Positions 1 to 55,879 of a stretch of DNA of 64,000 nt are shown piece by piece. Under the pieces are notes generated by a model, which was given only the letters and a program-made list of their open reading frames with translations, did no database searches and had not been told where the DNA came from. The stretch's first letter is position 1, and every line of letters starts with the position of its first letter. This DNA is from an uncultured Acidimicrobiia bacterium (GTDB lineage: Bacteria > Actinomycetota > Acidimicrobiia > Spongiisociales > JAENVV01), in NCBI GenBank assembly GCA_963752075.1, contig CAVVWO010000002.1, forward strand, positions 259,993 to 323,992, given 5' to 3'. A program made the position numbers and the translations under genes.

Positions 1-819
1 TCGGATCCTGCGCCGCTGCTTGAGGAGGCTCGACATGCGGTGGGTGCTCACGAGCTCCCGTGCGCCGATCCGATCCATGACGACGTGGCCGTGGCCTTCG
101 AGCAGCGACATGAGGGCTTGCACACGATCGATGGTGGCCCGCTGGTCGGGCGTGGCCAACATCCCGAGAAGGCCCGAATCGCCGAGTCCATCCGGACTGC
201 GCATCTCTTCGAGGAGCCTCGAAAACCGCCCCGATTCCGGCCCGGAGCCAGCCACCAGCTCGGTGACGAGTCGAGAGAAGTAGTCGCGCATCCATCGGAT
301 CCCGACGAACTGAAGGCGATGTGTGCATTCGTGCAGGGCGAGCCAAAAACGAAACTCGGAGGGGCGGAGCTGATGGGCCCGCTCGAGCGAGAGCACATTC
401 GGCCCCACCAGATACACGGCGTCACCGTGGTCACCGGTAGTCTCCGGCGTATTCGGTTCCGACGGCAGGACCAGTTCGTACTGACCGAGTACTTTCCTGG
501 CCATCACCCCCAGCAACGCACCGGCCTCGAGCGCCACGGCACGTCCGCCAACGGCTTGCGAGATGGCCGAAGGTGCGGACCCGGCAGCTGCCTGCTCGGC
601 AGGTTCGATCACCTTGCTGAAGAACTCGACGTTGCGTTCGATCCACTGGTTCCGATCCAACACGACCACGCGGGGGATGCCGTGGGAGGGGAGCCCCGTT
701 TCAGCCTCGACGAGGGCTTCGGCCCGAGCCACGAGACCGGGTGCCTGCTCGGCGAGAATCTCTGCGTGATAGGACTCGTAGAGTGGGTAGGTCCCGGCAA
801 TGTTCCCCGCCACTCGCAC
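1..819 (-). CDS. zinc-dependent metalloprotease-like hydrolase (DUF2342-type); C-terminal part lies beyond the window start
   Basis: Absent from the ORF track because its stop is off-window. My reverse-strand translation gives ...PWSLAVRVAGNIAGTYPLYESYHAEILAEQAPGLVARAEALVEAETGLPSHGIPRVVVLDRNQWIERNVEFF...VYLVGPNVLSLERAHQLRPSEFRFWLALHECTHRLQFVGIRWMRDYF...LLGMLATPDQRATIDRVQALMSLLEGHGHVVMD with an HExxH motif (HECTH). The upstream in-frame stop is at 907-909 and GTG start candidates are at 819 and 813. The + ORF 40..924 is its antisense shadow. Confidence 0.6.
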   Translation of the reverse strand, partial: MRVAGNIAGTYPLYESYHAEILAEQAPGLVARAEALVEAETGLPSHGIPRVVVLDRNQWIERNVEFFSKVIEPAEQAAAGSAPSAISQAVGGRAVALEAGALLGVMARKVLGQYELVLPSEPNTPETTGDHGDAVYLVGPNVLSLERAHQLRPSEFRFWLALHECTHRLQFVGIRWMRDYFSRLVTELVAGSGPESGRFSRLLEEMRSPDGLGDSGLLGMLATPDQRATIDRVQALMSLLEGHGHVVMDRIGARELVSTHRMSSLLKQRRRIR

Positions 820-11653: not shown

Positions 11654-12304
11654 TCAGCCTGTCAGCGAGGCAACCACGGCCACCACGTCAGCCGGTTCCG
11701 CCCGAACTCGATGGTTCAGATCGACAAAGGCGAATCGGATCACTCCGTCACTGTCGATGACGTAGGTGGCCGGGACCGGTAGCTCCCAGACCTCTGAGCC
11801 ATTCATGGCCCCGATGTCTCGGTCCATGTTCCGGTAGTACTCGACGATCCCAGGCTCCATTTCGTAGACGAGATTGAACTGCTTGGCAACGACATTGTCC
11901 TGGTCCGAAAGGACAGGAAAGGTCAGTTCGTGTTTCTCGATGAGCCCCAGCGACTCGTCGGGCTGGTTGGGCGAGATCGCCACCAGCGTTGCTCCGGCCG
12001 CCTTGGCGGCCTCCAACTCCCGTTGGAGAGCACGGAGTTCCAGATTGCAGAACGGGCACCACGAGCCCCGGTAGAACGAAACGATGACCGGCCCGGTCTC
12101 GAGCAGGTCGGCGAGCCTGACGACCTTCCCGAAGGCGTCAGGCAGCTCGAACATGGGTGCCTGGTCGCCTTCCCGAAGGGCGGTTTCGAGAATGTCGGTC
12201 GAGGCGAGGGATTCGGCGGCCTTGGTGTAGACGGCGGAACGTTCGGCGTCGAAGTTCGCCCGGCCTTTGGCGGTGAACGCCTCCGTCTCTTCTGCAAGCG
12301 TCAT
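11654..12304 (-). CDS. peroxiredoxin-like (AhpC/TSA, thioredoxin-fold) protein with WCPFC motif
   Basis: 216 aa with FYRGSWCPFCNLELRAL and FPVLSDQDN. This is the Cys-containing paralogue of the candidate Sec protein at 52017. Confidence 0.7.
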   Translation of the reverse strand: MTLAEETEAFTAKGRANFDAERSAVYTKAAESLASTDILETALREGDQAPMFELPDAFGKVVRLADLLETGPVIVSFYRGSWCPFCNLELRALQRELEAAKAAGATLVAISPNQPDESLGLIEKHELTFPVLSDQDNVVAKQFNLVYEMEPGIVEYYRNMDRDIGAMNGSEVWELPVPATYVIDSDGVIRFAFVDLNHRVRAEPADVVAVVASLTG

Positions 12305-48821: not shown

Positions 48822-49628
48822 TCAGACCGGATGGAACCAGGGTCCGCCCGATCCCCGCTCCTCCAGCAGTTCGCGGAGGAGATCAGGTCGATCGGTGATG
48901 AGCCCATCAACGCCCAGGTCGAGCAGCTCGGCCATGTCATCGGGGTCGTTGATGGTCCACACATGAACCTGCTTACCGAGCTTCCGAGCCGCCTCGACCA
49001 CCACTCGGTCGACGACCGTGACCCGCCCCTGCCGGACCGGCACCTGGAGGGCATCCGCCCGGATGGCGGCCGACCGCCCGGCTCGAGCAGAGAGTACGAA
49101 TCGAAGCGTTTCGAGGGGGCCGGCGGAGGTCGCCACCCGATCGCCGGCGAGCGTTCGGAACCTGCGGAGCCGGACATCACTGAACGAACCGACGATGACC
49201 CGGTCCCACAGTTTGAATTGCTCGATGGCGGCGACCAAGGGCGCCTCGAGTCCAGGTTGCTTGAGGTCAAGGGTGATCACGGCTCCGGGGAAGGTCGTCA
49301 CCAATTCTTCGAGGGTCGGGATGGTCACACCGGTTCCCCGCTCGGGGAAGTGATGCATCGAATCGAATCGGAAACCGGCGTCGAGTTTCCGTAGATCGGC
49401 CAGATGGCGCTGCCACACCTTGCCTTTCCCGTCCGTGGTGCGCTCGAGCGTATCGTCGTGGAGGCACACCAGCGCCCCGTCAGCCGAAATATGCAGGTCC
49501 GTCTCCAGATAGCGGTATCCGAGGTCGACCGCCCCTTGAAAGGCCATCATCGTGTTCTCAGGCCACAGCGTCCGTGACCCTCGATGGGCAATGGCAATCG
49601 GGTGCTCGTGGGCGAGTGCGGGCTTCAT
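48822..49628 (-). CDS. glycerophosphodiester phosphodiesterase
   Basis: 268 aa with IAHRGSRTLWPENTMMAF...YLETDLHISADGALVCLHDDTLERTT (GDPD catalytic His/Glu/Asp motifs). Confidence 0.8.
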   Translation of the reverse strand: MKPALAHEHPIAIAHRGSRTLWPENTMMAFQGAVDLGYRYLETDLHISADGALVCLHDDTLERTTDGKGKVWQRHLADLRKLDAGFRFDSMHHFPERGTGVTIPTLEELVTTFPGAVITLDLKQPGLEAPLVAAIEQFKLWDRVIVGSFSDVRLRRFRTLAGDRVATSAGPLETLRFVLSARAGRSAAIRADALQVPVRQGRVTVVDRVVVEAARKLGKQVHVWTINDPDDMAELLDLGVDGLITDRPDLLRELLEERGSGGPWFHPV

Positions 49629-49682: not shown

Positions 49683-50312
49683 ATGGTTCGTCAAACGTTC
49701 CTCGAAACGGTGGACCTGACCGCCGATCTCCTCGAGAGTCCCGAGGTCGTCAGGCATTGGGCGTCGCCGTCCGTGCTGGAGGGCTATACCGTGGGGGGAT
49801 TGGCGGGACATCTGGCACGAGCCGCCATCACGGTGGACCGATATCTCGACGACGAACCCCCGGACGGATCGCCGATCAGCTCAGCCGAATACTTCATCCG
49901 GGGTTTGGGCGACGCCGACCCGATCCAGGACGAACTCCACGTGGCCACCCGCGAGCGTGGCGAGCAGGCCGGCTCGATTGGACCCCATGCACTCGCAGCG
50001 GAGGCTCGGACCATTCGCAGCCGACTCGCCGTCCGATTCGAGACCGAGCGCTCCGATCGTCGCGTCGCCGTCTTCCAGGGGTTGTGCATGCTCGTCGACG
50101 ACTACCTCGAGACCCGCATCGTCGAGCTCGTCATTCATCTCGACGACCTGGCGGCCAGCGTGGGCCGCACGCCACCCAGAGTAAGCCCCGAGGCCGAATC
50201 CCTCGTTCTCCGCACCCTCGTGGAGATGGCGGCTGCCCGCCACGGCGCTTCCGTCATGATCCGAGCCCTGGCCAGACGCGAACGAGTCACCGAATGGCCC
50301 ACCGCCTTCTGA
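49683..50312 (+). CDS. DinB-like / maleylpyruvate-isomerase N-terminal domain protein (mycothiol-dependent enzyme family)
   Basis: 209 aa. The N-terminal pattern W.SPSVLEGYTVGGLAGHLAR resembles the MDMPI_N fold with its metal-binding His. Confidence 0.45.
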   Translation: MVRQTFLETVDLTADLLESPEVVRHWASPSVLEGYTVGGLAGHLARAAITVDRYLDDEPPDGSPISSAEYFIRGLGDADPIQDELHVATRERGEQAGSIGPHALAAEARTIRSRLAVRFETERSDRRVAVFQGLCMLVDDYLETRIVELVIHLDDLAASVGRTPPRVSPEAESLVLRTLVEMAAARHGASVMIRALARRERVTEWPTAF

Positions 50313-50331: not shown

Positions 50332-50979
50332 ATGTCAGTTCACCAAACTACCCATCCGTCCGAAGGCATAGCCGTCCAAGGTGTCGGGCGGGCGACAGTT
50401 GTCCCGGATACTCTTTCGCTCCAACTCGGGACTCACGTCATCAGCCCAACGGTCGCGACGGCGCTCGAGCGGGCCTCTGCGGATTCGAGGAACCTCCTCG
50501 GCATTCTCGAGCGCTTCGAGGTGCCGCGGACCCACATCCAAACCGGACAGATGGCCATACATCCCCAATGGAACTACACGGGAACCGAACAGCGACTGGT
50601 CGGGTATCAGGTGGCCATCGACCATACCGTCACTGTCTCCACCGCGGAGGCGGCCGCCGCCACGATCACCGCCGCGGCCGAACAACTCGGTGACTCCCTC
50701 GTCATCGGTGCTTTGACCTGGTCGGTGGATCAACCCGCCGAAGCTCTGGTGGCGGCGCGTCTCGCCGCCTGGAACGACGCCAACACCAAGGGTCGACACC
50801 TCGCCGAGCTAGCCGGACGAGCCCTGGGTTTGGCCGTATGGATTCGAGAGGCAGGACCCCAGCCCACCCCGTTCGCCACCATGGCTCGGGCCGAAATGGC
50901 CAATGGACCGGCGCTCGAACCTGGGCAATCGACTGTCGAGGTCTATCTCGACGTGGTGTTCGCCTTCGGGGCCGCCTGA
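50332..50979 (+). CDS. SIMPL (DUF541) domain protein
   Basis: 215 aa with GIAVQGVGRATVVPDTLSLQLG..., I.GYQV....V.V and a terminal EPGQSTVEVYLDVVF pattern typical of SIMPL/BP26-like proteins. Confidence 0.55.
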   Translation: MSVHQTTHPSEGIAVQGVGRATVVPDTLSLQLGTHVISPTVATALERASADSRNLLGILERFEVPRTHIQTGQMAIHPQWNYTGTEQRLVGYQVAIDHTVTVSTAEAAAATITAAAEQLGDSLVIGALTWSVDQPAEALVAARLAAWNDANTKGRHLAELAGRALGLAVWIREAGPQPTPFATMARAEMANGPALEPGQSTVEVYLDVVFAFGAA

Positions 50980-51089
50980 CCGGTTGAGCTTTCTCGACCC
51001 TCCCCCACCCCCGAGTGGTCTTGGCTTTTCTCAAGACGAGATCGTCTGCACAGCTACACTGCCCACGGCCAGAAACGACGGAGTTGATT

Positions 51090-51962
51090 GTGAAGTGGAA
51101 GAACCTTCGGGGTAGTGGGAATATCGAAGATCGGCGAACGCGTCCCGGCCGCACCGTCGCCGGCGGAGCAGGAGGTGTGGGCATCGTCGGCCTCCTCGTC
51201 TTCCTCGCCATTCAATTCCTCGGAGGCGGCGAGGGCGGTTTCGATCCGTCGGTCCTCGAGCAGCTCCAGCCGGCCGGGAGCGGCGCCGCCTCCAGCGGCC
51301 CCGAGGTGGAACTCACGGCCGAGGAGCAGGAGTACGAAGACTTCGTCTCGAAGGTGATCGGCGACACCGACTTCGTGTGGGATCAGATCTTCACCGATGC
51401 CGGCCTCACCTATCAACGACCGCGCCTCGTCCTGTTCCGCGGCGCCACCCAGTCGGGATGCGGAGGGGCCAATAGTCAGGTCGGTCCGCACTACTGCCCG
51501 CTCGATGACACGATCTACGTCGATGAGACCTTCTTCGATGCGGTGCTCGAATATCAGCTCGGCGCCCAAGGCGGCGACTTCGCCGAGGCCTACGTCTTGG
51601 CCCATGAGGTCGGACACCACGTCCAGAACGAGCTGGGCATCAATGAGCAGGTGCGCACGCTCCAGCAGCAGTCTCCAGGAGAAGCCAACCAACTGTCCGT
51701 GCGGATGGAACTCCAGGCCGACTGCTTTGCCGGGGTGTGGGCGCATTCCGTCGCCGAATTAGATGCCGTGGCATTGTCGCAATCCGACATCCGTGAGGCG
51801 ATCGATGCCGCCGCCACCGTTGGGGACGACCGCATCCAGCAGACCACCCAGGGTCGAGTCAATCCCGAGGCGTGGACGCACGGCTCGGCGGAGCAGCGAG
51901 TCGACTGGTTCACCCGCGGCTACGAGACCGGCGACGCCAACGAGTGCAACACCTTCGACTGA
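51090..51962 (+). CDS. neutral zinc metallopeptidase (YpfJ-type)
   Basis: GTG 51090 gives VKWKNLRGSGNIEDRRT, followed by a TM helix. It also has YCPLDDTIYVD and HExxH (LAHEVGHHVQ). The track start at 51015 adds 25 residues. Confidence 0.75.
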   Translation: MKWKNLRGSGNIEDRRTRPGRTVAGGAGGVGIVGLLVFLAIQFLGGGEGGFDPSVLEQLQPAGSGAASSGPEVELTAEEQEYEDFVSKVIGDTDFVWDQIFTDAGLTYQRPRLVLFRGATQSGCGGANSQVGPHYCPLDDTIYVDETFFDAVLEYQLGAQGGDFAEAYVLAHEVGHHVQNELGINEQVRTLQQQSPGEANQLSVRMELQADCFAGVWAHSVAELDAVALSQSDIREAIDAAATVGDDRIQQTTQGRVNPEAWTHGSAEQRVDWFTRGYETGDANECNTFD

Positions 51963-52016
51963 GGCTCCTCGGGTCGCCCTCTTGGTAAGGTTCCTCGACA
52001 ACCCTCGAGGAGTCTC

Positions 52017-52688
52017 ATGCAGTCGCCCGATTTCACCGTCACCGACCAGGCTGGTCGCCCTTGGACGCTCTCGGAGCATCTCGACGCCGCAGCCATCCTG
52101 ATCTTCCTCCGCGGCGATTGGTGACCCTACTGCAGCGGCCAGCTGGTCAGCTTGGCTTCGCGGCACGAAGACTTCCTCGCCGGCGGAGGTCGCCTGTTCG
52201 GCGTAGTGATCGATTCTCCCGAGCAGAATGCCGCCACTGTCGAACGACTCTGGCTTCCGTTCCCGATTCTGAGCGATCCCGGTCGCGCCTCAGCAATCAC
52301 CCCCTACGGTGTGGCCAACCCGACTGACGAACGAAACCTGGCCATCCCCGCAGTCGTGATCATCACCCCTGGCGGCGAGGAGGCTTGGCGGTGGGTGGCC
52401 CGCGACTTCGCCGATCGGATTCCTGAAGATGAGGTTCTGGCCGAGCTTCAGGCTCTCGGCCTCTCCCCGACCTCCCAGACGCCTCCCGAGACCGTGAATC
52501 CGCAGCCCGGTCGCCGTGCCATGCCAATCGATCAGCTCGGCTCATACCTGCGGGGCGCGCGCTTTGCAGCGGTTGCCCTGGGCAATCGCCACCCCGCGAT
52601 CGCCGACGACACGACTGCCTACGTTGAGGAGATGGACCGGTTCCTGAAGGCGGTGACGCTACTCAAGGGCAGACAAGCTGCCGGCTGA
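52017..52688 (+). CDS. peroxiredoxin-like (AhpC/TSA, thioredoxin-fold) protein with in-frame TGA at the first Cys of the W-C-P-x-C motif: candidate selenoprotein (U-x-x-C)
   Basis: ATG 52017 has GAGGAG 6 nt upstream and gives MQSPDFTVTDQAGRPWTLSEHLDAAAILIFLRGDW-[TGA 52122-52124]-PYCSGQLVSLASRHEDFLAGGGRLFGVVIDSPEQN...LPFPILSDP. The frame is continuous with track ORF 52152..52688, whose 'start' is an internal TTG. A SECIS-like hairpin follows the TGA. Confidence 0.6.
52135..52161 (+). promoter_or_regulatory. candidate bacterial SECIS hairpin
   Basis: Pairs are G52135-C52161, C36-G60 and G37-C59, then a UU bulge (57-58). These are followed by G38-C56, C39-G55, C40-G54 and A41-U53, a bulged U52, then G42-C51 and C43-G50. 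The apical loop is UGGUCA (52144-52149), and its GGUC lies 23-26 nt after the U of the UGA. Confidence 0.5.
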
Positions 52689-52702: not shown

Positions 52703-53269
52703 CTACTTGGAGAGCCCTTCGAGCAACAAGCCGGACAGATCCGTGGCGGCCAAATGCGCATCGGCTCCCTCGCCGACGAGATGGCCGACGCCCCCGATCA
52801 TGTGGAACATCAACTCGGCCGTTCGTGCAGGAGACGGTTGCGGGCGGAGATGGCCGGACTCGACGCCGCTGGTGAGCACGTCTTCGAGTGCCTGACGGAT
52901 TCGTCGCACTCGTCCCTCGATTTGGACCCGGGCCTCAGGAGACATGAGGGTCCGCATCGAAACGTGGAAGTCACGCTGGGCGAACCGGACCATGGCCTCG
53001 CGCACGAAGATTCGAATCTGTTCGGATGGATCGGTAGTCTGGGCGAGGGTTGATTCGATTCGTCCGGCCATCTCATCGATCTCTTCGAGCAGATACTCGA
53101 GGAGGGCGGCTTCGACGGTAGGGCATTTGTTGTAGAGGGTCTGCCGAGAGACATCGGCGCGTTCTGCCACAGCGGTCATCGTCACGTTCGACAGGCCGCG
53201 CTCCTCGACGAGCGAGTACGCCGCGTCGAGTATGCGACGTCGGGTGGTCTGCTCGGGTCGATTTGACAT
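52703..53269 (-). CDS. TetR family transcriptional regulator
   Basis: ATG 53269 gives MSNRPEQTTRRRILDAAYSLVEERGLSNVTMTAVAERADVSRQTLYNKC (TetR HTH). It is divergent from the MMPL gene. The track start at 53404 adds 45 residues. Confidence 0.8.
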   Translation of the reverse strand: MSNRPEQTTRRRILDAAYSLVEERGLSNVTMTAVAERADVSRQTLYNKCPTVEAALLEYLLEEIDEMAGRIESTLAQTTDPSEQIRIFVREAMVRFAQRDFHVSMRTLMSPEARVQIEGRVRRIRQALEDVLTSGVESGHLRPQPSPARTAELMFHMIGGVGHLVGEGADAHLAATDLSGLLLEGLSK

Positions 53270-53336
53270 TATGTCTATTCTATCATTGAATATCTGACAC
53301 TTCGTCCAAACTGTCGAGTGCACCGGAGCTGAACCC

Positions 53337-55879
53337 GTGAAAGCCATCATCCGTTTATTGGCGCGAGCCGTCGGAGGCGCTCCCGTCGCCGTCATCGCCG
53401 TCACCCTGGCACTGACCGCCGTCTTCGGCTATCTGACCATATTCGTGGCCGAACAGAGCACTGGCGGCCAGGAAGGCTTTTCGCCTGAGAATCCCGAGAT
53501 TCTCGCCTCGCAGAGGATCGGAGAGATCTTCGGAGAGGAAGCCACCCAGTCGGTGATGCAGGTGGTCGTGACCTCGGCGTCCGGGGACGTGATTTCAGCC
53601 GACGGCCTCGCAGCCGCCAACCGGGTCGTGCAAGCGATTGCGGAAAGCGAGTATGCGGATGTCGTCGCCGGTGATGCCCAGCAGCCTGGTGTCGTCACCT
53701 GGATGGCACCGGTCCAGCAGACTGCTGCCCAGCAGGGCATCGACACCGCCGGAATGGACGACTCCGCCATCCGCGGGCTGTACGACCAGGCACTCGCCGA
53801 AGGTGGTGAACAGCTCGGTTTCGTGAGCCAGCTCGTCAACGAGGACACCTCGACCGCCCTGGTCCTCGTGTTCGTGGACACCACCGACGATGCGACGGCA
53901 CAAGCGGAGCGTGAGGTCGGAATCGCCGAGGTCATCAGCGGACTCGATGTGGGATCGGACATCGAGCTCAGGCCGTTCAGCTTCAATCTCCTGTTCTCGG
54001 CGGATTCTGGGTTCGAAAGCGAGATCGGCCGTCTCTTCGGATCGGCGTTCGCCATCATCATCGGCATTCTCCTGTTCGTCTACTGGCTGAAGCCGCGCGG
54101 CCCCCACGCCAGTTGGATCCGATCCTTCCGGCGCACCGGCGCCGACATGGGCATGACGATGCTGACCATCGTCTTCGCCATCCTGTGGATGAACGGAATC
54201 GGCGGCATTCTCCAGCAGTTCGGATGGCTCGGTCCGTTCAACGAGATCAGCCAGATCGTGCCCATCCTTCTCATCGGCCTCGGTGTCGACTACGGCATCC
54301 ACCTCACGTCCCGCTACCGCGAGGACGTCGGTGAAGGCGACGACGTCGATGGAGGCATTCGAGCCGCGATCGGCACCGTTGGCGTTGCACTGGCCCTGGC
54401 CACCGTGACCACCGTCATCGGCTTCCTCACGAACGTCTTCAACCCGATTCCCGCGCTCAAGGACTTCGGGATCCTGGCGGCCATCGGCATCGGCGCTTCC
54501 TTCGTGCTCATGCTCACGTTCGTGCCCGCCGTGCGGGAGCTCCTCGATCGTCGGGCCGAAGCCAGCGATCGAGCTGCCGCGTGAAGCCATGGGCGCTACC
54601 AGCGAGCGCCTCCTTCCGATGCTCATGGAGAAGACCTCCATCCTGGCGGTCAAGGCTCCGGTCGCGACCCTCATAGTGACGGTGCTCCTGGGTGGACTCG
54701 GATACTACGGTCTCAGCAACATCTCAACCGAGTTCTCCTTCACCGATTTCCTCCCGGCCGATTCGCCAGGTGTGAAGACCTTCGAAATCCTCAACGATGA
54801 ATTCGGCGGTGGATTCGGAGAGACCACACAGGTGCTGGTCGAGGGTGATCTGTCGGACCCTGCCACGTACAACGCCATCGCTGCCGCCACCGCCAATATG
54901 GCGGACACTCCCGACGTGCTCACGTTCCCCACGCCAGTCGGTCCCGCAACCGGCGGTGAGCTCGCCGGTGTCGGTGGTCCAGCAGCTGCTCATTCCGGGA
55001 GAGGATGGCGCACCCTCGAACGCCGAGTTCGCCCAGTTCGCCATCCAGAACGGCCTCAATCCCGAAGATGGATCCATGGGTACAGAGGCCGATGTAACGG
55101 CGATCCTGATCGCGGCAGCCGACGCTGCTCCCGGCCAGATGAGCGCCGTCCTCGAGATCTCGGATGGAGCCCCGACCGCCGCCCTCTTAGAGATCAGCAC
55201 TCAAGCCGGAGAAAACCGGGCACTCGACCTTCGCGACAATCTGGTGACGGACCTGACTCCGCTCACCGACACCGGGGTCGAGGCCACCGCCGACCTCCCA
55301 GAACATCATCGGCGGTGCCATCGTCAACTCGCTCTCGTCTTCGCAGGTGCGATCACTCGTCACTCACCCTCATCGCCGCCACCATCGTCCTGGTCGATCA
55401 ACTTCTGGTTCGAGAATCGCCGACCGTTCCTCGGCGTCATCACGATGCTCCCGGTGGCCCTCGTGGTCCTCTGGACGTTCGGCCTCATGTACCTCAGCGG
55501 TATTCCGTTCGGTCCCGTGACGGCCACCCTCACCGGTCTCGCCGTCGGTATCGGTGTGCCCTACACCATTCACATGGCCAGGCGATTCGAAGAGGACCGC
55601 GCCCGGTTCACCAGCATCAACGAGGCCATCCGATCGACGACCCGCCACACAGGCGGCGCTCTCGCCGGCTCGGCGTTCACCACGGCGGCCGGATTCGGCA
55701 TCCTGATCACGTCCACGCTGACACCGTTCCGGCAGATGGGTCAGGTGACCGCCTATGCGATCGGTTTGAGTCTCTTCGGCGCGGTGCTCGTTCTGCCGTC
55801 GATGCTCGTACTGTGGGAACGGTGGCACCGTCGCCATGGAGACGCCGGGACCGAGAAGCCGACCGAGTCGCTCGTCTGA
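53337..55879 (+). pseudogene. MMPL/RND-superfamily membrane transporter, at least 4 frame changes
   Basis: The N-terminal half is ORF 53337..54584 (TM1, a large loop, then a TM bundle with LIGLGVDYGIHL). It continues as LPREAMGATSERLLPMLMEKTSILAVKAP (54589 frame), QQLLIPGEDGAPSNAEFAQFAIQNG (54797 frame), SLTLIAATIVLV (54589 frame) and INFWFENRRPFLGVITMLPV...GIGVPYTIHMARRF...* ending at 55879. Shifts lie near 54565, 54950 and 55290-55400 (approximate). Confidence 0.75.

Follow-up and report, generated by a model that had tools for sequence, protein, structure and literature searches.

A Candidate Prx-like UxxC Selenoprotein Gene with a Conserved SECIS-Type Hairpin in Uncultured Acidimicrobiia

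Introduction

Bacterial selenoproteins that combine a peroxiredoxin (Prx)-like domain with a UxxC motif, in which U is selenocysteine (Sec), have been known since 2005, when they were described as the "Prx-like protein" of the Sargasso Sea study (PMC1088965). The Global Ocean Sampling (GOS) study lists the kind as Prx-like 1, with the domain pfam00578 and the motif UxxC (PMC2398784), and a 2026 review calls it the "Prx-like thiol:disulfide oxidoreductase" selenoprotein (PMC13188914). The bacterial Sec insertion sequence (SECIS) has its apical loop 16-37 nt after the UGA (PMC10778597), and that loop must be small and contain a G (PMC1088965). Here we analyze a gene at positions 52017-52688 of a 64,000-nt stretch of contig CAVVWO010000002.1, from an uncultured Acidimicrobiia bacterium; the whole stretch, which has a G+C content of 64%, is called the window. 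We propose that this is a genuine SECIS-dependent selenoprotein gene, a reading to which we give a probability of roughly 0.9. Judged by its sequence, the product belongs to the known Prx-like UxxC kind.

An earlier, sequence-only reading of the window had put the gene forward as a candidate selenoprotein truncated by open reading frame (ORF) calling. That proposal is now supported by conservation of the TGA, by a pairing of Sec forms with cysteine (Cys) forms, and by a constraint on a hairpin that is specific to the UGA forms.

The Gene and Its In-Frame TGA

The frame opens at ATG 52017 and closes at the terminator TGA 52686-52688, giving 223 codons with a single internal TGA. The latter, at 52122-52124, is codon 36 and lies in the context ...FLRGDW-TGA-PYCSGQLVSLA.... 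The start, the TGA within GDW*PYCSGQL and the end of the frame at 52688 are all seen in the DNA as the sequence-only reading gave them, and the mechanical ORF list does, as it said, show only 52152..52688, from a TTG start, for the same gene. The features of the gene, and a paralogue elsewhere in the window, are as follows.

52007..52012, plus strand: putative Shine-Dalgarno-like GAGGAG, 4 nt before the ATG, read from the sequence.
52017..52688, plus strand: proposed full selenoprotein coding sequence, with UGA read as Sec at codon 36 (translation; full-length tblastn matches in 80 genomes).
52023..52376, plus strand: AhpC-TSA peroxiredoxin-fold domain, residues 3-120 (Pfam PF00578, E 2.6e-22; model of the relative P0001; Foldseek).
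52122..52124, plus strand: in-frame TGA, the proposed Sec codon (residue 36), found as TGA in 81/81 genomic sequences and 115/115 metagenome matches.
52122..52133, plus strand: redox motif U-P-Y-C (family consensus U-[PASG]-Y-C).
52138..52156, plus strand: SECIS-type hairpin of 7 bp, GCCAGCU-GGUC-AGC(U)UGGC, 13 nt after the UGA (RNAalifold consensus).
52145..52148, plus strand: apical tetraloop GGUC, separated by 20 nt from the A of the UGA, or +24..27 counting the U of the UGA as 1.
52152, plus strand: bulged pyrimidine in the 3' arm of the stem; most relatives have U or C here.
52389..52685, plus strand: family-specific C-terminal extension, residues ~125-223, with an RDFADR motif, a linker and two long helices, and with no Pfam or NCBIfam match.
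52686..52688, plus strand: terminator TGA, read from the sequence.
11654..12304, minus strand: distant Cys paralogue (WCPFC), separate from the selenoprotein gene (sequence comparison).

Scanning one genome for each GTDB species yielded 261 loci that encode a relative. The best 80 of these, at 52-70% identity, were kept, and counts out of 81 in the family alignments refer to the window gene together with these 80. Almost all of the 80 are from metagenome-assembled genomes (MAGs) of Acidimicrobiia, with five closed chromosomes among them; the gene is carried by the complete chromosomes OZ244213.1, OZ253443.1, OZ244034.1, OZ242000.1 and CP070681.1. The codon aligned with codon 36 is TGA in 80/80 retrieved loci, within the motif RGD[WF]-U-[PASG]-Y-C-x-G-Q-L, and the core U-[PASG]-Y-C is present in 81/81 sequences. 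The alignment of relatives that the sequence-only reading had proposed thus gives TGA at this column in every close genomic locus, and Cys in more distant full-length homologues.

Nor do the relatives carry the further disruptions that the sequence-only reading took as the mark of a pseudogene. All 81 sequences have a start codon at a distance of 28-45 codons before the TGA, and in each the frame, measured from no more than 33 codons before the TGA, stays open for 213-231 codons. The halves before and after the TGA are always in the same frame, without indels between them. The ratio of nonsynonymous to synonymous differences (pN/pS) is 0.34 over the 34 codons upstream of the TGA and 0.45-0.53 downstream. 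The low upstream value indicates that the part before the TGA is both translated in the same frame and subject to selection. A pattern made of the 5' arm and loop of the hairpin, in which the third base of the codon could vary, was matched by 115 contigs in JGI metagenomes. All 115 have the TGA, a count that is not independent of phylogeny.

The way in which these genes are stored in databases agrees with the expectation of the sequence-only reading that such a gene would be annotated as truncated. The protein search, over 5.8 billion database sequences, yielded 79 close homologous protein clusters, of which 78 are N-terminally truncated calls of 137-186 residues that begin at varied points after the TGA column. 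The sole full-length entry, P0001, reads GDWWPYC while its DNA has TGA, which means that the gene was called under code 4, where TGA stands for Trp; at its locus (L083:582-1259, JGI Ga0633713_0320760) the code-4 model was apparently chosen by the metagenome gene caller. In the databases searched, then, the Acidimicrobiia branch of Prx-like selenoproteins is almost always stored as truncated proteins.

The Hairpin Downstream of the TGA

The alignment of the region after the TGA comprises 81 sequences and 72 columns and has no gaps. Columns 22-41 (GGCCAGCTGGTCAGCYTGGC) are almost invariant; the codons directly after them are free. RNAalifold predicts a 7-bp stem in which columns 23-29 pair with columns 34-41, equivalent to window positions 52138-52156, with a GGUC loop and a bulged pyrimidine at 52152. 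Standard pairs make up 99.5% of the 567 cells (7 pairs in 81 sequences), a proportion that falls to 1-47% when the 3' partner is slid by 1-3 columns. The sequence-only reading had drawn a 9-bp hairpin at 52135-52161 with the loop UGGUCA. Its hairpin and bulge hold, as a conserved 7-bp core at 52138-52156, but the 9-bp extent does not, the added flanks being variable in relatives; of its loop, GGUC stands as the tetraloop 52145-52148 of the core. It had also placed GGUC 23-26 nt from the UGA, which is correct for the loop as an offset from the U and equals +24..27 when that U is counted as 1.

Variation within the hairpin is sparse. Pair 24-40 is CG in 75 sequences, UG in 3, AU in 1 (L070) and GU in 1 (L074), so that compatible and compensatory changes are seen at one pair. 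The bulged position is mostly U or C in relatives, with A in L032 and L078 and G in L080. The apical loop is GGUC in 75/81 and GGCC in 6/81. The six GGCC loci (L047, L049, L063, L069, L072 and L078) have CAG-TTG-GCC for CAG-CTG-GTC at columns 28-33, with a U-G closing pair. Their loop has no U, an alternative GGCC/AGUU/GGCC hairpin is possible for them, and L047 and L063 break one lower-stem pair.

The hairpin is conserved beyond what the protein needs. For its 4- and 6-fold degenerate codons, Gly, Leu, Val, Ser and Leu, codon entropy is 0.42, 0.38, 0, 0.17 and 1.09, against a median of 1.73 and a minimum of 0.76 for 66 equally conserved 4- and 6-fold codons elsewhere (Mann-Whitney p = 1.3e-4). 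Between pairs of sequences, the hairpin codons are on average 94% identical in nucleotides and the rest of the gene 61%, and the proportion of synonymous differences (pS) is 0.18 in the hairpin codons versus 0.64-0.67 in the other three parts of the gene (0.65 overall), or 3.7-fold lower. The hairpin 19-mer occurs once in the window, where 0.02 occurrences are expected by chance. This pattern at synonymous positions indicates that the constraint at the hairpin acts on the RNA and not on the protein.

The hairpin agrees with the published bacterial rules, with a gap of 20 nt between UGA and loop and a small loop, GGUC, that begins with G. It may also be set beside the SECIS of E. coli fdhF, for which the extracted gene sequence has TGA at codon 140 and a minimal hairpin GGUUGCA-GGUC-UGCACC with its loop at +22..25. 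The two share the GGUC tetraloop, a short G+C-rich stem and one bulged pyrimidine. They differ in that the loop starts at +22 in fdhF and +24 in the window hairpin, that 11 nt and 13 nt, respectively, separate the UGA from the base of the stem, and that the stem sequences are different.

Cysteine Forms of the Protein

A phmmer search with P0001 as query, exhaustive over 1.84 billion cluster representatives, identified full-length homologues at 40-49% identity that have Cys at the TGA column, for example RGDWCPYCNGQLAS and RGDWCSWCNGQLVSL, and most of these share the C-terminal extension. In P0083, P0085, P0088, P0094, P0101 and P0102 the motif is RGDWC..C, and in P0095 it is RADWC. The codon in the seven Cys-form genes examined is TGC or TGT.

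The peptide NGQLVSL is conserved in the Sec forms and also in the Cys forms, so the two can be compared at the nucleotide level for the same protein sequence. The GGUC loop is absent from 7/7 Cys-form genes, and the Leu codon is CTC in six of them. Four of the seven retain merely 3 or 4 of the 7 stem pairs. The Cys form L086 encodes the identical peptide CNGQLVSLA with CTC-GTC-TCC-CTC and has no structure. Only one Cys form, L089:1001-1726, keeps all 7 pairs, around a GAUG loop, and L087:1001-1642 has a different 8-bp stem at the homologous place, with the loop GUG; the hairpins of L087 and L089 may be relics of a Sec-to-Cys conversion. The nucleotide-level constraint on the hairpin is restricted to the UGA forms. 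The same peptide with and without hairpin amounts to a clean natural experiment, on which predictors of bacterial SECIS elements in high-G+C genomes could be trained or benchmarked.

The sequence-only reading had regarded the paralogue at 11654..12304 as the other half of a classic Cys/Sec pair. It is a Prx-like CxxC protein, and its WCPFC does align with the UPYC of the selenoprotein. It is not an orthologous Cys twin, being encoded on the minus strand and only 29% identical over 131 residues (E 2e-15). It also has an N-terminal extension of ~45 residues instead of a C-terminal one, and it has no TGA. Against NCBIfam, its best models (Bcp-type thiol peroxidase, ResA) all score below their cutoffs.

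Protein Fold, Active Site and Proposed Mechanism

With Cys in place of U, the protein has 223 residues; Pfam places AhpC-TSA at residues 3-120 (E 2.6e-22) and also matches Redoxin (E 3.4e-12), which bears out the earlier description of its N-terminus as AhpC/TSA-type. Residues 125-223 match no Pfam or NCBIfam model; this extension is present in both Sec and Cys forms. In a search of NCBIfam with the window protein no model passed: the best was the SelL-related redox protein, with 39.7 bits against a cutoff of 120, and the PrxU model gave 17 bits against a cutoff of 270.

An AlphaFold2 model is available for P0001, which is 58% identical to the window protein and carries W at the Sec position. 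It has pLDDT 94 and pTM 0.90, with just one sequence covering the first ~45 residues. The Sec column lies at the start of a helix, 36-47, and the core is followed by two long C-terminal helices, 170-190 and 196-223. Foldseek matches this model to BCP, AhpE and other peroxiredoxins in the PDB, with target TM-scores up to 0.86 over ~145-160 columns and a low root-mean-square deviation; these matches leave the C-terminal helices uncovered.

Aligned by phmmer to 2cx3, the BCP of A. pernix, the protein has its U opposite the Ser of FSPVC and its C39 opposite the peroxidatic Cys. In the same alignment, which compares sequences only, the catalytic Arg of peroxiredoxins, in KRAVFIV, stands opposite the invariant Pro111, and an invariant Arg106 lies five residues upstream. 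The protein departs from the canonical peroxiredoxin motif PxxxT/SxxC, with Sec at the Thr/Ser position and no Pro four residues before it (LRGDWUPYC). The positions of U and C39 relative to 2cx3 point to an active site of thioredoxin (UxxC) type within a peroxiredoxin fold. The TGA had been described as standing at the position of the catalytic Cys; this is right if the first position of a thioredoxin-type CxxC is meant, and not if the peroxidatic Cys is meant.

We propose that a single intact gene occupies the locus and that its product is a cytoplasmic selenoprotein of the "Prx-like thiol:disulfide oxidoreductase" kind. When the ribosome arrives at the UGA of codon 36, the hairpin 52138-52156 would act as a bacterial SECIS; we infer that it binds SelB with Sec-tRNA(Sec), and that Sec is inserted in place of termination. 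The product would have a BCP/AhpE-like peroxiredoxin fold with a thioredoxin-type site, U36-P-Y-C39, where the first long helix begins. The selenolate of U36 would, by analogy, attack an oxidized substrate, which might be a disulfide, a sulfenate or a peroxide. C39 would then, again by analogy, resolve the adduct to give an internal selenenylsulfide, to be reduced by a cellular thiol reductant.

Weighing the Selenoprotein Reading

Several observations weigh against a SECIS-dependent selenoprotein. The bulged U of fdhF is on the 5' strand, whereas the bulge of the window hairpin, mostly U or C, is on the 3' strand, so that of the likeness to fdhF claimed by the sequence-only reading the GGUC loop survives and the 5'-strand bulged U below the loop does not. 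In six relatives the loop is GGCC and not GGUC, and in two of the six a pair of the lower stem is broken. The stem is nearly invariant, and true covariation is seen at one pair, in two sequences. Folded as a single sequence the hairpin is no better than shuffles (z = +1.17, with 178/200 shuffles at least as stable). It follows that support above chance comes solely from comparison, namely the TGA in 81/81, the 99.5% pairing, the synonymous suppression and the 19-mer. Finally, searches of the window and of ~1.8 Mb of related loci turned up no selA, selB, selD or tRNA-Sec, a negative that is uninformative on whole genomes and is expected if these genes are unlinked.

The searches behind this last point were as follows. 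ARAGORN found no tRNA-Sec in the window and the 80 loci, and Rfam found only a tRNA-Thr in the window. With SelA, SelB and SelD of E. coli as queries, tblastn over the window and 195 loci gave only an EF-Tu false positive, in L170. A 93-nt ARAGORN "tRNA-Pro (cgg)" at L013:6260-6352 (minus strand) has no Rfam tRNA match at a cutoff as loose as E <= 1. It is no tRNA-Sec, and probably a false positive. Sec machinery has been reported in one Acidimicrobiia order, Actinomarinales (bioRxiv 10.64898/2026.04.03.716425); in the literature searched, this 2026 preprint is the only report of such machinery in Acidimicrobiia, and Actinomarinales the only order.

Of the other explanations, the one that survives best, though we consider it very unlikely, is that the hairpin stimulates read-through with insertion of Trp, Cys or Gly without any Sec machinery, or that UGA is reassigned throughout the lineage. 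The lack of Sec machinery in the window and related loci would suit this explanation, as would the public call that reads W under code 4. The family genes themselves speak against it, since they terminate at TGA in 49, TAG in 26 and TAA in 6 of the 81 cases. TGA is thus an ordinary terminator in 49/81 family genes, including the window gene, and it also ends the gene upstream; it follows that UGA is not reassigned in these genomes. Moreover, homologues have Cys in the column and in no case Trp or Gly, and the hairpin has the specific features of a SECIS, in its GGUC loop and its spacing, and is not a generic stable structure.

A second explanation, which we find hardly credible, is that the UGA simply terminates, so that a 35-residue peptide is made and the remainder is translated separately from an internal start. 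Such a codon exists in the window, the in-frame TTG 52152, and in 37/81 relatives the earliest possible start is a TTG located 10 codons past the TGA. But this TTG belongs to the conserved hairpin, and across the 81 sequences the first possible restart varies from 7 to 48 codons downstream, with database calls beginning at many different residues. Both parts are always in the same frame without indels, and the TGA falls at the N-terminus of the active-site helix, within one compact fold whose first strands are encoded upstream of it.

Just as hard to credit is a third explanation, in which the hairpin serves some other purpose, such as mRNA stability, pausing or a protein-coding constraint, and lies after the UGA by coincidence. 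The NGQLVSL peptide is itself conserved, in the Cys forms too, and in two Cys forms a hairpin is retained at the equivalent position. Yet the synonymous positions are frozen in the UGA forms only; L086 has the same peptide with CTC/TCC/CTC codons and no structure, and four other Cys forms have 3 or 4 of the 7 pairs.

A pseudogene, or a base-call or assembly error in a Cys codon, has next to no probability, for although broken genes do occur in the window (an MMPL gene at 53337-55879 lies in three frames, against an intact relative in L003), the same TGA is present in 81/81 independent genomes and 115/115 metagenome contigs, no copy has any other disruption, and the sequence to either side of the TGA is under purifying selection. 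Taken together, the conservation of the TGA, the intact frames, the upstream selection and the ordinary use of TGA as a stop exclude a pseudogene, a sequencing error and a code change for this codon.

Genomic Neighborhood

The selenoprotein gene has no conserved gene neighborhood, the largest cluster of neighbors being found in 9/81 loci. In the window its neighbors are the following.

48822-49628, minus strand: glycerophosphodiester phosphodiesterase.
49683-50312, plus strand: mycothiol maleylpyruvate-isomerase N-terminal (DinB-like) domain protein, ~1.7 kb upstream of the selenoprotein gene.
50332-50979: SIMPL/DUF541 protein.
51015-51962: putative neutral zinc metallopeptidase, the upstream gene, which ends in TGA.
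52703-53404, minus strand: TetR regulator.
53337-55879, plus strand: MMPL transporter gene, broken, split over three frames.

The mycothiol-domain neighbor might hint at a mycothiol-linked redox context. Homologues of it lie within 4 kb of the family gene in 6/80 other loci, a weak association.

The longest TetR ORF, 52703-53404 (minus strand), overlaps the start of the MMPL gene (53337) by 68 nt, and its Pfam TetR_N match begins at residue 58, so that the true TetR start is probably internal. Given such a start, the two genes probably form a typical divergent TetR-transporter pair directly downstream of the selenoprotein gene. The first half of the MMPL gene is 53337-54584; the gene goes on in another frame from 54589 and then in the frame of 54797-55879, and both ends match Pfam MMPL. 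Its relative in L003 is a single ORF of 1142 codons, which points to assembly indel errors or a pseudogene in the window. These frame shifts agree with the remark in the sequence-only reading that the other defects in the window are indels.

Two scans for more selenoprotein genes were made and set aside. The hairpin rule gave 134 matches besides the family genes in the window and the 80 loci (7 of them in the window), and a scan of G+C by codon position gave 12 matches without recovering the known gene. In DNA of 64% G+C, neither scan discriminates.

Significance of the Family

Among the 80 genomes examined, of at least 261 species-level genomes with a relative, essentially all are Acidimicrobiia, and nearly every close member has Sec and not Cys. 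Whether these genes make up an uncatalogued selenoprotein subfamily, a Prx fold with UxxC and a C-terminal helical pair in at least 261 species-level genomes, is in our judgment evenly balanced. If they do, Sec decoding would be widespread across soil, sediment and marine Acidimicrobiia, and the GGUC tetraloop used by E. coli SelB would be conserved in Actinomycetota. The gene itself offers a convenient marker of Sec decoding in Acidimicrobiia; the class is abundant and mostly uncultured, and its selenium use is barely documented. Knowledge of how Sec insertion works is unchanged by these findings.

For annotation the consequence is practical. The 78 of 79 close clusters that are stored as fragments lack the active site, and the lone full-length one is owed to a wrong genetic code. 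A model built for this family, with a column for Sec, would put several hundred gene calls right.

Comparison with Known Selenoproteins

Three known kinds invite comparison. PrxU (TxxU) has the same fold, belongs to the same Pfam family and also places Sec in the active-site turn. In PrxU, Sec is at the peroxidatic position, whereas the window protein has it at the Thr/Ser three residues earlier and keeps Cys at the peroxidatic position. PRX_like2 (cd02970) and SelL-related proteins are similar in having a CxxC-type motif in a Prx fold, and SelL-related is the best NCBIfam match of the window protein, far below cutoff. The motif of SelL is UxxU and that of the cd02970 selenoprotein UxxS, as against UxxC in the window protein. 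A selenoprotein form of cd02970 is included in the 2026 review (PMC13188914).

The closest likeness is to the Prx-like thiol:disulfide oxidoreductase selenoproteins, as judged from the published descriptions of the kind, whose reference sequence is WP_010940744.1. The points in common are the PF00578 domain, the UxxC motif, a SECIS directly downstream inside the ORF and the existence of Cys homologues. In comparison with Prx-like 1, the branch represented in the window passes no NCBIfam model, is found almost only in MAGs of Acidimicrobiia, and adds to the Prx-like domain a conserved C-terminal extension of ~100 residues that ends in two long helices.

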